Virus record (IMG/VR): IMGVR_UViG_3300046380_000010
Span: 1-41,625 of that record
Source of the DNA: a virus
Lineage: Duplodnaviria; Caudoviricetes
Direction: 5' to 3' (one strand)
Length of the DNA stretch: 41,625 bases
Positions 1,461 to 41,625 of the stretch are shown here, one piece after another. The translations under genes were made by a program, and so were the position numbers. Below the pieces are notes generated by a model. That model saw nothing but the letters and a program-made list of their open reading frames with translations. It made no database searches and had not been told where the DNA came from. The first letter of the stretch is position 1, and every line of letters begins with the position of its first letter.

Positions 1461-1499
1461 TGGCGCTTGAGGAATCGAACCTCGTATCCGGTTGCGCCA
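1461..1499 (-). ncRNA. tRNA T-arm-like minihelix in the early leader
   Basis: TGGCGC-aaccggatac-GAGG-TTCGATT-CCTC-aa-GCGCCA: a canonical T-loop inside a 6-bp closing stem. Confidence 0.5.
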
Positions 1500-2487: not shown

Positions 2488-2733
2488 ATGTTGCTTTCGA
2501 GGAGAGAGATGCGCGATTGCCAGGAGTTGATGCCCGGCATCGACTGCGGAGAGGGCGACAGGTTGTTTGCCCCTGCCAGCGCCACACGTGAGCAGATTGA
2601 CGCTGTTCTGCGTTACCTGGTGGCCTATCGCTATCGTGTCAATGATCGCATGGACGCGTTCCGTCTGGCGATGCGGCTTCGGCGCTTCATGCGTACCGGA
2701 GAGCGATTCCCGCAAGAGGAGGGAGCGCTGTGA
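2488..2733 (+). CDS. Hypothetical protein
   Basis: AAGGAG RBS before MLLSRREMRDC...; stop overlaps the next GTG. Confidence 0.65.
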   Translation: MLLSRREMRDCQELMPGIDCGEGDRLFAPASATREQIDAVLRYLVAYRYRVNDRMDAFRLAMRLRRFMRTGERFPQEEGAL

Positions 2734-3407
2734 GAAGGAAGATCCGAACGCCTGTCATCGATGAATGTAGACTCGAAGGGATGCTCAGAGAGATCACAGG
2801 ATTAGACGCTCTGGTAATCACTCCAGAGGGCAAGGTATCGATGCCCGACGATTCCACTATTGACCAGGACTTAGCCGTCCTGCACGGGCTGCTGGACAGC
2901 CACGATGCCAGCGCAGTGCGGGGCCGGTTCCTCGCCGGGAACTTCGTCAACCAATTCTGCTTCCGACATGGTGACAAAGCCGCCATACTCCAGCACAACT
3001 TCTCCGATCACGATTACAACCGACTACGCAAGTTCGCCCGCGTCGCCGCTGCGTGGGGATGGAATCCCGGCCTGACATGGGGATGGAGCTTCTATGAGGA
3101 GACGGCGAAACTCAACAGACAACAGCAAACTAAAGTCGTCGCCAAGTGGCACATGGGCAAATACACCATCGTTCACTTTCGAGCCGACAAAGAGTTTAAC
3201 ACTGTTAAGTTTTGTCCGACGTCGGACAAACGAGATCAAAACACGCCAAATCCGACGCTCTCTAATACTAAATACGTCGGATTTGGCAGCGTAGAGGACG
3301 CTCTCAAAGCGCTCGTGCAGCAGAGCAACTACCAGACCGTACAGGCGACCCTGGATGCTCTCAGAGAGCAGGAGGAGACAGACCAGTTCGCAGAGGAGGA
3401 CGACTGA
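2730..3407 (+). CDS. Hypothetical protein, possible DNA-binding regulator; paralog of 34727-35635
   Basis: 225-aa ORF with RBS; shares RF..GN, HGDK and GWS motifs with 34727-35635. Confidence 0.7.
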   Translation: MRRKIRTPVIDECRLEGMLREITGLDALVITPEGKVSMPDDSTIDQDLAVLHGLLDSHDASAVRGRFLAGNFVNQFCFRHGDKAAILQHNFSDHDYNRLRKFARVAAAWGWNPGLTWGWSFYEETAKLNRQQQTKVVAKWHMGKYTIVHFRADKEFNTVKFCPTSDKRDQNTPNPTLSNTKYVGFGSVEDALKALVQQSNYQTVQATLDALREQEETDQFAEEDD

Positions 3408-30518: not shown

Positions 30519-30839
30519 ATGCCAGGATTTAACTTCGGTGGACTACTCGGCGGTCTTCTCTCAGGGGCAGAAGCGCCTATCATACACGGCATTATGCGCG
30601 GAATCGAGTTGGACGCCCAATTCGTCTCTGACTGGATCTGGGCGCAGGAACACTCTTTGTCAGTCGATCCCACGCCGTTGAACGAACTGCTGCCCATCGC
30701 GAAGATGAACGTCTCCGAACTGCTCGGCGCAACAGGCCATCTGCTTCCCACTATCGAAGGCGCAATACTGGGCGGCTCCGATCCCGCCGCTGGTTCACGG
30801 CACGCGTACGAGGTATGGAAGGCGAAGTGGGGTCGCTAA
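30519..30839 (+). CDS. Hypothetical protein
   Basis: AAGGA RBS; 106 aa. Confidence 0.6.
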   Translation: MPGFNFGGLLGGLLSGAEAPIIHGIMRGIELDAQFVSDWIWAQEHSLSVDPTPLNELLPIAKMNVSELLGATGHLLPTIEGAILGGSDPAAGSRHAYEVWKAKWGR

Positions 30840-31393
30840 CGGCAGAAGAAATCTTTTGCCCACTGGAACGGAATGCCTGCGTTAGCCGCACACTGCTCGT
30901 CTTCGGGCCGATCCCCGACCAACAGAGAGGCATCCCAGTCAATCAGGAAACCTGCATAGAAGGCTTCGACTTCCATCAGGACGAGCATTCCCACATCGGG
31001 CTTACGAAGCAGAGACCGTCGATTGTAGGGGAAGCTTGCCTTCTCGCCTTCCATGTGGAAGCAGGATTTAAGGGAGTGAAATGGCCCCATCCCCTGCTCG
31101 CTGCGCTTGAACAATGAGAACATCGCGTCGATTTCGGCATTGACTTGTTCGGGCGTTTTGTAGCCCATCGCAACGCCGCCCTGATTGGTCAGACCGAAGA
31201 TGAGGTATCCAGCGTCCCGATATTCCCAAATCTTCTCTTCGACACCGGGATAGAGCGTCACGTCATCAGGGCCATTGATGAATTTGTTCTCCCCGCGCTT
31301 GCTCAGCCGAACGGTACCGTCCAAGTCCAGGCATAAGGCGGGAACCGTCGAGCCGTTCCATATCACACCGTTGGCAGTTAGTAAGCCTTCCAT
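30836..31393 (-). CDS. HAD-IIIA phosphatase (GmhB/HisB-N/PNKP-like)
   Basis: DLDGT, TNQGG, RKPDVGM and VGDRPED motifs. Confidence 0.88.
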   Translation of the reverse strand: MEGLLTANGVIWNGSTVPALCLDLDGTVRLSKRGENKFINGPDDVTLYPGVEEKIWEYRDAGYLIFGLTNQGGVAMGYKTPEQVNAEIDAMFSLFKRSEQGMGPFHSLKSCFHMEGEKASFPYNRRSLLRKPDVGMLVLMEVEAFYAGFLIDWDASLLVGDRPEDEQCAANAGIPFQWAKDFFCR

Positions 31394-33068: not shown

Positions 33069-33275
33069 CTAACTCACCTCCTGCAAGGTTGGAACATGCT
33101 CATCCTGCTCCGTCGCCATGTTGGAAAGAATAAGGTTCTCGAATACCAGTGTCTCAGAGGCTATCTCCAGCGCGCGCTGCTTCTGCGGTATAGGGTCCCG
33201 CATGAAATCCGATGCTGCCTGCCACACCACATTCTTCGCAAGCGTTACCTTCGCCCTCTGATCTCTCAAACTCAT
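33069..33275 (-). CDS. Hypothetical protein
   Basis: AAGGGAG RBS; 68 aa. Confidence 0.65.
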   Translation of the reverse strand: MSLRDQRAKVTLAKNVVWQAASDFMRDPIPQKQRALEIASETLVFENLILSNMATEQDEHVPTLQEVS

Positions 33276-33317
33276 CGTCTGTCTCCCTTCTCTGCTAACT
33301 GATTACCACTAAAACAG

Positions 33318-33352
33318 GCATACTCTTCTCTGGAGAATTATGCTTTTTGTTT
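33318..33352 (+). terminator. Possible intrinsic terminator for + strand transcripts
   Basis: Imperfect GCATA..TTCTC/GAGAA.TATGC stem followed by TTTTTGTTT. Confidence 0.35.
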
Positions 33353-33360
33353 GCTTCCTA

Positions 33361-33592
33361 ACTGAACTACGATGAGTAGTACCGCGCAGGTTCGTACAGG
33401 GGCGCGGTTCCACTGATTACCTCAACATTCGCCACAAGGTACATAGGCCACGGTTTTACTCCCTTACCCGCTGGGAGGCTATACCGGGATTCCGCCCGGT
33501 CGGTTTTGTCGGCTCTCTGAACGGAATGCTCTGGCTCCATAAATGGAGGGGTTGTCCGGTGCAGGCGCAACACACAGCAAACCGACAAAAAC
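33361..33592 (-). ncRNA. Putative structured ncRNA
   Basis: Stems TTTTGTCGGTT/AGCCGACAAAA, CTCCAT/ATGGAG, ACCGGG/CCCGGT, CTCCC/GGGAG and ACCGCGC/GCGCGGT; ends in a 16-nt copy of the tRNA-like 5' end. Confidence 0.55.
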
Positions 33593-33602
33593 AGAAACAT
33601 AT

Positions 33603-33908
33603 TTAGCCGTCGCCGGAGCCGTAGCCGTAGCCGGAGCCGGAGCCGCCGCCGGCTCCGTAGCCGGAGCCGGCTACGGAGCCGTAGCCGTCGCCGTAGCCGT
33701 AGCCGGAGCCGGCTCCGTAGCCGTAGCCGGCTCCGGCTCCGTCGCCGTAGCCGTAGCCGTAGCCGGCTCCGTAGCCGGAGCCGGAGCCGTAGCCGGAGCC
33801 GTAGCCGGAGCCGGAGCCGTAGCCGGAGCCGTAGCCGGAGCCGTAGCCGGAGCCGTAGCCGGAGCCGGAGCCGTAGCCGGAGCCGTCGCCGGATTTTACG
33901 CCTTCCAT
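33603..33908 (-). CDS. Gly-rich (G-Y/S/D/A)n repeat protein
   Basis: AAGGAG/AAGGA before ATG 33908; MEGVKSGDGSGYGSG...; 6-bp GGCTAC/GGCTCC tandem units. Confidence 0.6.
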   Translation of the reverse strand: MEGVKSGDGSGYGSGSGYGSGYGSGYGSGYGSGSGYGSGYGSGSGYGAGYGYGYGDGAGAGYGYGAGSGYGYGDGYGSVAGSGYGAGGGSGSGYGYGSGDG

Positions 33909-34192
33909 TCCTTGACTCCTTTGATAATCTCCTCTGCCTCGGTGGTCGTGTCGATCACCTCGATGACTTCCAGCACAGTGATGCTGACAGGAACGGCGAA
34001 TTTGCAGTCGTTCGGAAGCGACGTGCCGTGTATCGCCAGCCCGGAGAGGGACGCTGCTCCTGCCCAATACCAGAGCCGCCGCGCATTTTCAAGCCGTGCT
34101 TCCTGTCCTTCACGCGAAACCAGTGTTCCTGAAAAACAGCCTGCGTTTTGCGTCCGAACGATTACATACTTACCGATCTGAGTGTCTGACAT
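33896..34192 (-). CDS. DUF6948-like small phage protein
   Basis: IGKYVIVRT..AG.F.G.L.....E..L.NARRLWYWAGAASLS.LA..G signature. Confidence 0.8.
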   Translation of the reverse strand: MSDTQIGKYVIVRTQNAGCFSGTLVSREGQEARLENARRLWYWAGAASLSGLAIHGTSLPNDCKFAVPVSITVLEVIEVIDTTTEAEEIIKGVKEWKA

Positions 34193-34726: not shown

Positions 34727-35635
34727 CTATGGCATCTGACATCGGATGACAGCGACCGTAAACAGGTCGCCCTCTTTGAGACACATACCCGCAGGTACGA
34801 TGCACCGAACGTGATCTATCTCCGGGTCTATGGTTCGCACCGCATGATTGAACAGGATCACAGGCCGTCCATTGTCCATCATTACAGGCGCTACGGCCCT
34901 CGTAGGAGGCTGATAGGTTCCCTGCTGGACGGTATCGCCCTCCACCTTGAACGAAGTCACAGGAGCAGAGAAGAACGATTCTTCCGGTGGTGCCAATGCC
35001 TTCGCCTTCTCAATGCAGGACATGCACAGAGTCCCATCATCGCCGCACGGCTCTCCACACTCGCACCACGGCCCCGGATTTACCGTGTTCGGAGCAGGAG
35101 GTAAAGCAGGCGTTTCAGGCTTGTATTCTGCCTCTATAACATTGTTATCATGTTGCAGCAAATCGTCCACGTGGACGATTTGAGATCGTTTTGCCGATAT
35201 TTTGGCATTTTGTGTGTCTTCATCCCATCTCTGAAGAATCGATTTGATGTGTTCGACAGTTCTGATTTTCTTCTGCTTGTACTGCTTGATGAGTTCGAGT
35301 TTTTGTTCCTTCGGTCTGGCGTAAGTCAATTTGTAGTGCGACCATGACCAACCTACGCTCTGGTCATATACCCACTCTCTTGCGATCTTCATACACTCCA
35401 TCATAAAGATAGCGCGCTCCCCGAAATGCTTCTCGCAGAAAGCGAATTTATCTCCATGCTCCAGGGGGACTTCAAGTAGAGTATTGCCAATCTCGAACCG
35501 TACAGCGACCGTCAATCCTGTTTCCAGGTTGAGGAGTTCACCAAGGTACTTTTTGTATTCCGGCATCGTCGGATTGTCCGAAGAGGGAACCGTAGTCAGC
35601 CCCAGACTGTGTATCTTCAAAACCAGATCGTTCAT
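34727..35635 (-). CDS. Hypothetical protein, possible DNA-binding regulator; paralog of 2730-3407
   Basis: 302 aa; RFEIGN..HGDK..GWSWSHY; internal CECG...CMSC. Confidence 0.75.
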   Translation of the reverse strand: MNDLVLKIHSLGLTTVPSSDNPTMPEYKKYLGELLNLETGLTVAVRFEIGNTLLEVPLEHGDKFAFCEKHFGERAIFMMECMKIAREWVYDQSVGWSWSHYKLTYARPKEQKLELIKQYKQKKIRTVEHIKSILQRWDEDTQNAKISAKRSQIVHVDDLLQHDNNVIEAEYKPETPALPPAPNTVNPGPWCECGEPCGDDGTLCMSCIEKAKALAPPEESFFSAPVTSFKVEGDTVQQGTYQPPTRAVAPVMMDNGRPVILFNHAVRTIDPEIDHVRCIVPAGMCLKEGDLFTVAVIRCQMP

Positions 35636-35855: not shown

Positions 35856-35888
35856 CTCCTTTCAAAGCACTTTGTGAAACATAGTGTA

Positions 35889-36034
35889 GCCCTTCGGGCC
35901 TGAGACTCACTCTCCCAACTCTCTCCCTCCCTCTGGCTGTAGGTTTGGGAACTTGCGTTCTTTGCCTACATTTCAGCCGTCGGTCGGTCGGTCGCAGTCT
36001 TCGTTCGCTCACCGCCTTTGTCAGAGCAAGGCGG
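35889..36034 (-). ncRNA. Structured RNA downstream of the tRNA-like element
   Basis: CCGCCTT/AAGGCGG hairpin; GGCTG..TGTAGG..GAAC-GCAA-GTTC..CCTACAGCC stem with GNRA loop; GCCC/GGGC hairpin. Confidence 0.5.
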
Positions 36035-36046
36035 AACCCCTTCAAT

Positions 36047-36150
36047 TCCCATCGGCAGGATTTGAACCTGCGAGTTCCCGCCATTGGCCCAATCGGATTG
36101 TACATATCCTATGCGGCGGCGGACGTTCTACCAGACTGAACTACGATGAG
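36047..36150 (-). tRNA. tRNA-like RNA with enlarged anticodon arm; identity undetermined
   Basis: Acceptor CTCATCG/CGATGGG, U8-A9, D-arm GTTC-AGTCTGGTA-GAAC, stem TCCGCC/GGCGGG enclosing 35 nt, variable loop AACTC, T-arm GCAGG-TTCAAAT-CCTGC; no encoded CCA. Confidence 0.75.
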
Positions 36151-36160
36151 CCAAACAGAA

Positions 36161-36289
36161 ACACACCTCCGAAATCATGACTAGTGAGGATCGGAGGTGT
36201 GTCGTAGACCACTGCGCTTGCGACGCCGGTCATTCTTCACGGTATGAAATTCTGTGTACCCTCACTAGTCGTATTCATTATACACAGAA
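36161..36289 (-). ncRNA. Double hairpin with complementary (kissing) loops
   Basis: 9-bp and 12-bp perfect stems whose loops contain GACTAGTGAGG and CCTCACTAGTC. Confidence 0.7.
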
Positions 36290-36308
36290 CTCTGATTTTT
36301 GGCAACCC

Positions 36309-36635
36309 TCAGTAACCGTACGGCTTCGTGATGTCGTAATCCTTGTCGATATTGCTCTCCTTCTTGCCTTCAACCACCGTCCTCATCGCCGCATCGAAAG
36401 CCGCATCCTGTGGCGTCTTCTGCTCCGATGGCAGGGGAGGGAAGGGGTCTGAATCGTCGATCAGATCACGTACAAGACAGACTTTCTTGCCCGTACCATC
36501 CCTTTGGAGTTGATACACCGCTTTATGTCCTAAATTGATCAGTGTATAGAACCGCTTGTTGGTTAGGACAAGGCTTGCGCTCAGGGTGGCGAGGTTCCCA
36601 TCGTGGAAATAGACCTCACTGCGTTTGGTTGTCAC
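36309..36635 (-). CDS. Hypothetical protein
   Basis: GAGGAG RBS with GTG start (TTKRSEVYF...). Confidence 0.55.
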   Translation of the reverse strand: MTTKRSEVYFHDGNLATLSASLVLTNKRFYTLINLGHKAVYQLQRDGTGKKVCLVRDLIDDSDPFPPLPSEQKTPQDAAFDAAMRTVVEGKKESNIDKDYDITKPYGY

Positions 36636-41300: not shown

Positions 41301-41625
41301 GCGTTTGCCCCTTCCAGCCTCAGCAATTCGAGGAGTGTGTCAGCCTCCCATTCGTGATAGGCCGACTCTGCCGCCGACCATGCCGCCGCCCGTGCCGACC
41401 ATGCCGCCGACCATGCCGCCGCCCGTGCCGACCATGCCGCCGCCCGTGCCGACCATGCCGCCGACCATGCCGCCGCCCATGCCGCCGACTCTGCCGCCGA
41501 CCATGCCGCCGACCGTGCCGCCGACCGTGCCGACCGTGCCGCCGACTCTGCCGCCGACTCTGCCGCCGACCGTGCCGCCGACCCGGCCGACCCTGCCGCC
41601 GACTCAGCCGAAGACTCTGCCGACG
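41297..41625 (-). CDS. C-terminal part of the SAA-repeat protein
   Basis: ...SAAWSARAAAWSAAESAYHEWEADTLLELLRLEGANA-stop; in frame with 1-585 across the 76-bp end overlap. Confidence 0.85.
   Translation of the reverse strand, partial: SAESSAESAAGSAGSAARSAAESAAESAARSARSAARSAAWSAAESAAWAAAWSAAWSARAAAWSARAAAWSAAWSARAAAWSAAESAYHEWEADTLLELLRLEGANA
41360..41625. repeat. Tandem 12/9-bp repeats encoding SAAW/SAAE/SAAR/AAAW
   Basis: Directly visible. Confidence 0.95.

Follow-up and report, generated by a model that had tools for sequence, protein, structure and literature searches.

In a tailed phage from a soil metagenome, a minus-strand noncoding cassette carries, in the order of transcription, a promoter motif, a predicted pseudoknot, a tRNA-Pro-like fold with a greatly enlarged anticodon loop, and a trailer that leads into a protein gene. 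We tentatively favor an explanation in which the fold is a non-decoding tRNA tag at which host RNase P and a 3′ nuclease would cut to yield a ~120-nt knotted RNA together with a stable tRNA-shaped RNA. A sequence-only reading of this DNA had proposed three abutting structured modules spaced about 10 nt apart; two of these, the 5′ module and the tRNA fold, are solid, and the third, the trailer, is weak. The spacing was right, at about 10 nt between the last 5′ hairpin and the tRNA and 5-12 nt between the tRNA and the trailer. The cassette lies between a stop codon at 36309 and the start (35855) of a gene for a 72-aa Zn-ribbon protein, with the following features:

36277..36305, minus strand: predicted sigma-70-type promoter motif, TTGCCA-17-TATAAT (11/12 consensus matches)
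36281..36289, minus strand: upstream arm, pairing with 36258-36250 (9 bp) only in read-through RNA and overlapping the -10 box
36260..36270, minus strand: leader strand of an 11-bp helix (13 bp with wobble), pairing with the hairpin loop 36189-36179
36155..36255, minus strand: body of the 5′ module, with a closing helix (36255-36250/36160-36155), two short hairpins, and a 12-bp hairpin
36047..36150, minus strand: tRNA-Pro-like cloverleaf (C1:G72, A73, 17a D-loop), CCA not encoded; Rfam tRNA, 45.4 bits, E 1.2e-6
36082..36118, minus strand: 37-nt anticodon loop with 30 extra nt, including an inner hairpin (36109-36095) with a palindromic loop
36012..36041, minus strand: trailer hairpin (7 bp) and possible small H-type knot (4+6 bp), weak, there being 146 such knots in the window
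35966..36008, minus strand: two short frames resembling tmRNA tag starts (ANEDCDRPTDG and a stop from 36008; ATDRPTAEM and a stop from 35995), probably chance
35885..35978, minus strand: 3′ part of the trailer, with a stem (35978-35935) around an inner hairpin capped by GCAA, with a purine-rich stretch, and with a final hairpin

Results

Genome setting and coding potential

The window, by which we mean the whole 41,625-nt stretch analyzed, is a virus record rated complete, and it encodes a terminase, portal, capsid, SU10-type adaptor, and bacterial-type endolysin, a gene content that identifies it as a tailed bacteriophage. Most relatives of one early protein belong to Acidobacteriota genomes, and at 35-49% identity they are too distant for naming the host. 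Genes for an integrase, reverse transcriptase, RNA ligase, or Ro60 were absent among the scanned ORFs, and the only candidate for a tRNA-repair or defense-related function identified is a stand-alone HAD-IIIA/PNK 3′-phosphatase-like gene (30836-31393, minus strand), for which a ligase partner was not found. The same 9/12-nt GC-rich tandem repeat stands at both record ends (1-217 and 41349-41625), which suggests a circular or terminally redundant genome broken within the repeat. The proteins encoded at 2730-3407 (plus strand) and 34727-35635 (minus strand) match the same relatives and are probably distant paralogues; an Atlas hint of DUF3102 for this pair fell below its bar. Behind the DUF6948 gene is a Gly-rich GSGYG repeat gene (33562-33945), the source of many false hairpin matches, and upstream of DUF6948 is a structured leader (34375-34190, minus strand) preceded by a weak promoter motif, with two crossing helix sets (9+8 bp and 9 bp; rough z about -5) and no credible Rfam match.

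The position of the promoter motif predicts a transcription start at about 36271-36269, and among the sites listed in the 17.6 of 41.6 kb scanned this motif is the second best. The RNA would consequently be shorter than the ~420 nt originally proposed, the first ~35 nt being the promoter motif and the remaining ~385 nt the predicted RNA. The view that the cassette contains no credible CDS agrees with our findings: four overlapping ORFs that were looked up are absent from a protein collection in which the downstream gene is present, although the test is imperfect in that both start versions of the upstream gene are likewise absent. A 99-aa ORF gave three weak matches, all to repeat-containing proteins, of which two were aligned and neither held up; with only these spurious-looking matches, the idea of a protein product of this ORF was rejected. 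The assembled letters agree with the likely source sequencing run with zero variants, which is not independent support, and a second DNA run has zero coverage over the cassette.

An Rfam scan of the flanks, which the sequence-only reading had proposed as a check on novelty, returned nothing credible at E up to 10, and across the whole window Rfam found a single family, the tRNA at 36150-36047. Folded alone, the modules are only moderately better than shuffles (z -1.6 to -2.0).

The 5′ module is a predicted pseudoknot

The leader segment 36270-36260 is an exact complement of 36189-36179, and the resulting 11-bp helix crosses the 12-bp hairpin 36202-36161 (pair probabilities 0.95-1.0; body z -1.99) in the strand order of an H-type pseudoknot; one of the two short hairpins in the body is GCAA-capped. 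Of 2000 shuffles, only 3 produced one helix of ≥11 bp, and none produced either a pair of helices that long or a crossing pair of ≥9+9 bp. The leader-loop duplex, at -23.1 kcal/mol, was reached by 5/2000 and 0/2000 shuffles. Crossing 9+9 helices occur in nine of 2076 genome windows, two of which are the 5′ module and seven a coding repeat. The predicted 11+12-bp pseudoknot is unusually long and belongs to no Rfam family, and its 6-nt loop would be tight for spanning 11 bp.

This module had been described as a kissing-loop RNA. The crossing helices are there; in RNA started at the promoter, however, they form a predicted H-type pseudoknot, and a true loop-loop kiss would arise only in read-through RNA because the arm that it needs (36289-36281) overlaps the -10 box. 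That arm could alternatively be an operator-type inverted repeat acting in the DNA. Among 127 analogous tRNA folds, none has a comparable upstream knot (two had crossing helices of 8-9 bp), which means that a knot does not generally accompany such a tRNA fold.

The tRNA-Pro-like fold is intact outside its anticodon loop

Rfam bears out the proposed aberrant tRNA, which has a 37-nt anticodon loop and no CCA. All 21 stem pairs (7/4/5/5-bp stems) and all 16 invariant or semi-invariant elbow positions checked are intact; position 46 is C, not G. The anticodon loop departs from the canonical 7-nt loop with U33 and a purine at 37 both in its length and in having G at 33, and with its 30 extra bases the fold likely cannot decode. 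A Pro-like TTGGG is displaced to 36092-36088, where prediction puts it out of register and partly in paired sequence. ARAGORN misses the 36150-36047 fold at default settings, and relaxed runs make many false calls. Compared with the tRNAs of ≤80 nt within 308 distinct calls from collected IMG/VR loci, nine of the 11 best scores are to tRNA-Pro, the top one being of undetermined type, and 10 of 12 weak blastn matches in annotated phages are to tRNA-Pro T arms.

No single excision yields a canonical anticodon arm, and of eight two-cut solutions two give Pro(UGG). At least two events would be needed to produce the swollen loop, a history that points to selection on shape more than to a single recent insertion, and we infer from these features that selection maintains the shape of this fold and that it takes no part in decoding. 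As in a t-element, the tRNA-like fold abuts other RNA ends. Nested folding of the whole 387-nt transcript, in a model that leaves out the pseudoknot and tRNA tertiary contacts, does not select the cloverleaf, which speaks against a tRNA-shaped product: the acceptor has a pair probability of 0.0, and the free energy is -136.7 kcal/mol when unconstrained versus -129.4 kcal/mol with the cloverleaf forced. Each competing pairing, taken singly, is no stronger than chance.

The trailer is weakly structured

In the trailer, the first 62 nt fold no better than shuffles (z +0.29), the final 121 nt outperform 198 of 200 shuffles (z -2.59), and helices of ≥6 bp are as numerous in 1066 of 2000 shuffles. 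The trailer had been called GNRA-capped; it has one true GNRA cap (35960-35949), but the final hairpin (35899-35889) is not GNRA. This hairpin lacks a U tract, and no terminator was found in the trailer. Probably the trailer belongs to the next gene, that for the 72-aa Zn-ribbon protein (35855-35637), as its leader or 5′ UTR. A search for HDV-like folds beginning close to the tRNA 3′ end was negative: none of 23 matches to a loose descriptor, built from the family features in PMC10879173 (in excerpt), begins at 36050-36030. HDV/theta, hammerhead, pistol, twister, and group II motifs were rejected after the Rfam and descriptor searches.

Related elements at 33361 and 1461

Elsewhere in the window are two elements that the sequence-only reading had linked to the cassette, and at the level of sequence the link holds, through a 16-nt copy and a shared T-loop motif:

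33273..33376, minus strand: second element, with an exact copy of tRNA nt 1-16 at 33376-33361
1461..1499, minus strand: third element, an acceptor-plus-T-arm minihelix with a T-loop motif, overlapping a gene-called 86-aa ORF

A shared word of ≥16 nt was obtained in 2 of 100 shuffles. At the 33376-33361 copy, the first bases pair with the region around the start codon of a 68-aa gene (33275-33069); pairing between the cassette leader and the 33361 region is not significant (329/2000). Use of the copy as an attachment site was rejected, no integrase having been found among the scanned ORFs. Directly before the 33361 element, a hairpin run (33600-33380, minus strand) occupies a probably noncoding stretch; the protein collection lacks the 77-aa ORF that covers it.

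The 1461 minihelix is preceded by a 12/12 promoter motif (1576-1548), and between the two lies a word (1523-1510, minus strand) that we take to be boxA-like, with a short hairpin before it; this word may serve rRNA-type antitermination. The window has only two T-loop motifs, where 0.21 are expected (1/100 shuffles), and each of them follows one of the two top-scoring promoter motifs (12/12 and 11/12) in the scanned sequence.

Swollen tRNA folds in other phages

No homologue of the cassette was found in any search, and this orphan status limits the weight of the finding. Searches of annotated phages and plasmids by blastn gave only tRNA T arms or chance words, and IMG/VR pattern scans gave seven chance matches for the tRNA 5′ 16-mer and two unrelated matches for the knot core. 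Several routes through neighbor proteins found nothing and one led to two short contigs with no cassette upstream, 139 loci from relatives of these proteins (one set being the best 80 of 104) held no cassette match, and the 302-aa protein family is absent from 3 x 401 sampled genomes. Relatives of the neighbor proteins do exist on long contigs, outside the nucleotide sequences searched for the cassette.

A pattern for long anticodon regions matched at least 120 IMG/VR stretches from 20 of 64 parts of the database, or ~400 overall by estimate, and a narrower pattern matched 24 in a full scan; 120 of the about 400, and 24/24 of the narrower set, were checked and showed no homologue beyond tRNA arms. 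These gave 126 distinct folds, with acceptor and T stems closed in 96. A single excision repairs 37 of the 96, against 17.4% expected from shuffled inserts, and 25 of the 96 (near-duplicates included) are like the window fold in having a closed 5-bp anticodon stem that is not repairable; 11 of these have a tRNA within 400 nt, and seven encode CCA. Judging from these sequences, the swollen-anticodon architecture recurs in other phages, and many such folds cannot be introns. Such genes escape default tRNA finders, yet an estimated ~400 IMG/VR stretches fit one narrow pattern.

The closest architectural analogues are L283 and L276, with Pro-like D and T arms, a closed anticodon stem, and an enlarged loop, in L283 with TTGG near its 3′ end. 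A different type, seen in L016, L019, L041, L042, L056, L065, L090, L091, L093, L120, and L125, carries an insert near positions 27-29 made up of a hairpin, a motif like ACAGCAA, and a pyrimidine tail; of 25 such closed folds, 14 regain a canonical arm (Thr, Lys, Ile, and others) on removal of a single 41-48-nt segment, and the type is either a small intron family or a handle displaying an anticodon arm. Six further genes (L023, L033, L055, L092, L100, and L110), probably from giant viruses, are tRNA-Tyr(GTA) with ordinary 37/38 introns; they served as positive controls and were repaired by the same single-excision test.

Discussion

A proposed processing tag and its alternatives

In the explanation that we favor, the transcript would start at the predicted promoter near 36270, and the knot may keep the leader off the acceptor strand, as the pairing tests suggest, such that the cloverleaf can fold. 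The fold has kept the elbow and acceptor features on which RNase P relies, and the host enzyme would cut at 36151/36150 to free the ~120-nt pseudoknotted RNA; the predicted cut leaves this RNA ending just past a strong hairpin, and that 3′ hairpin would resist exonucleases. CCA-less precursors are substrates of RNase Z, and cleavage after A73 (36047) would fall to a 3′ endonuclease of RNase Z or RNase E type and would give a 104-nt tRNA-shaped RNA with the inserted hairpin on display. What stays behind would be the trailer, as the 5′ leader of an mRNA for the 72-aa and 302-aa genes; another such tag, in reduced form, would be the 1461 minihelix. The original idea was that the tag releases functional RNAs on both sides. 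It remains the best reading of the tRNA fold and the 5′ module, but release of a separate functional 3′ RNA is unsupported because the trailer is weakly structured, has no terminator, and runs into a protein gene.

The main product could instead be the tRNA-shaped RNA, released as a decoy that binds ProRS, anticodon nucleases, or tRNA-sensing defenses, with the flanks a mere leader and trailer. The fold keeps C1:G72 and A73 and has a TTGGG word in its loop, all of which we take to be proline identity elements, and it is the sole tRNA gene match in the window; such a decoy and a processing tag do not exclude each other. The register and partial pairing predicted for TTGGG count against a decoy, as does the finding that, beyond the HAD 3′-phosphatase-like gene, no tRNA-repair or defense-related gene was identified, and we regard this possibility as rather unlikely. 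Decay of a tRNA-Pro pseudogene with local duplications, between an ordinary structured leader and a UTR, would account for the orphan sequence, for an insert made of short inverted and direct repeats, for two further tRNA fragments in the genome, and for a trailer at chance level; it is hard to reconcile with zero broken stem pairs or elbow residues, a 5′ knot far beyond chance, and a near-consensus promoter motif that has been kept, and it is unlikely. That the cassette is one large ncRNA of ~385 nt, similar to GOLLD or ROOL and with an embedded tRNA domain, was the second proposal of the sequence-only reading. The whole region does fold better than 99 of 100 shuffles (z -2.30); however, pairings of the tRNA with the leader (1776/2000) and with the trailer (468/2000) are at chance, terminator and Rfam match are both absent, and we regard the proposal as very improbable. 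A strand-exchange switch between the flanks and the tRNA was rejected for the same chance-level pairing.

Splicing to a working tRNA-Pro(UGG) would make the fold an intron-containing tRNA. With 25 nt removed after C32 and 5 others taken out as well, what is left is a Pro(UGG) loop compatible with the body (two of the eight two-cut solutions), and phage tRNA introns are reported (PMC6784885, in excerpt). Yet no single excision works here, as against 37 of 96 analogues repairable by one (17% expected by chance), and the loop has a 3-bp helix and a 4-nt bulge instead of a bulge-helix-bulge. The insert is too short for a group I intron, Rfam has no intron match, and no ligase or endonuclease gene was found among the scanned ORFs, leaving splicing only a slim chance. 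We give slightly less credit still to a trailer that is a tmRNA-type tag template (a pk1-like knot and a short frame), freed by the tRNA tag and interfering with ribosome rescue (for background, see PMC4236655 and PMC4131195, both in excerpt). The window's only match to an A-N-D/E-D/E codon pattern lies 3 nt past the small trailer knot, and a second frame, 16 nt past the knot with ACT before GCG, ranks 87 of 83,202 on a resume-site matrix. The pattern, however, is expected to match about once (0.97) per genome, and A at -4, present in 59/59 real tmRNAs, occurs in neither of the two candidate frames. HMMs from the 59 tmRNAs (called in 62 loci, with locus L317 left out) miss the trailer, and pairwise similarity is at chance (142/200 and 42/200); the knot descriptor recovered pk1 in none of five real tmRNAs. 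The fold has C3:G70 and a 4-bp D stem in place of an alanine G3:U70 domain without a D stem, and there is no Rfam or ARAGORN tmRNA call. Membership in the tmRNA family was rejected on the G3:U70, D-stem, and A at -4 features and by the profile and pairwise tests.

Several known RNA classes were also rejected: a Y RNA of the YrlA type has no Rfam match and no TROVE match among the scanned ORFs; a 521-aa protein considered as a Ro60 partner is not Ro60-like in Atlas; and for a C4/CI-type antisense RNA, complementary words outside the cassette are ≤11 nt and pairing tests are at chance.

Building on the processing tag, a bolder version would be a natural 'tRNA scaffold' system, in which tRNA-derived folds behind the strongest promoters have one transcript cut into three working RNAs (the long-stemmed pseudoknot, a tRNA-Pro mimic displaying a payload, and a tag template of tmRNA style that has no tRNA domain and disturbs ribosome rescue), and the 33361 copy links the mimic to translation of the downstream gene. 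We think it highly improbable that all of this is so.

Comparison with known systems

The arrangement is not described in the open-access literature searched, a coverage that leaves subscription papers mostly outside, and we see it as a variant, orphan in sequence, of t-elements and of 'enigmatic' phage tRNA inserts. GOLLD and ROOL are located near tRNAs (PMC5737381, in excerpt), but neither has a match in the cassette, and Rfam 15 has none in the flanks. Theta (HDV-like) ribozymes are structured RNAs directly 3′ of a phage tRNA (PMC10879173, in excerpt), whereas the cassette has no HDV-like fold near the tRNA 3′ end even with the loose descriptor. A model for the 5′ module is provided by T4 RNAC and RNAD, small stable phage RNAs of unknown function from a tRNA region (PMC3014915, in excerpt); the T4 tRNAs are canonical, however, and the 5′ module has no sequence match in annotated phages.

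Cleavage of phage RNAs by the host enzyme has precedent, as the phage P1 C4 and P4 CI RNAs are RNase P substrates, and those of P1/P7 and P4 are cut from a leader transcript by host RNase P (PMC5499578), as we propose here. According to the excerpted account, the C4 and CI RNAs lack a T loop and act as antisense RNAs, whereas for the cassette no significant antisense target and no Rfam match were found.

The Lak megaphage tRNA inserts, termed 'enigmatic' introns by Devoto et al. 2019 (PMC6784885), resemble the window fold in lying in phage tRNA genes, in adding sequence to the anticodon loop, and, in the excerpted text, in having no known removal route. In the entries examined they are called at positions 37-41 and are assigned an anticodon; the window fold differs in having a loop that no single excision restores, in being encoded by a lone gene of a 41.6-kb phage, and in its knotted leader. 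If the processing-tag explanation is true, such inserts could be tested by simple RNase P assays.

The t-elements of plant mitochondria are RNase P/Z signals (PMC1920247). They are organellar, whereas the window fold is from a phage, has kept a complete elbow, and carries a payload hairpin, and its cleavage is predicted. Similar in shape is the engineered tRNA scaffold of Ponchon and Dardel, which like the window fold keeps the acceptor, D, and T arms and has a hairpin payload in place of the anticodon loop; tRNAs with such payloads are processed and stable in E. coli (PMC3753655, in excerpt). The scaffold is synthetic, whereas the payload in the window is natural, without a known ligand. If the swollen folds are processing tags or payload scaffolds, phages would naturally be using a trick known from organelles and from biotechnology.
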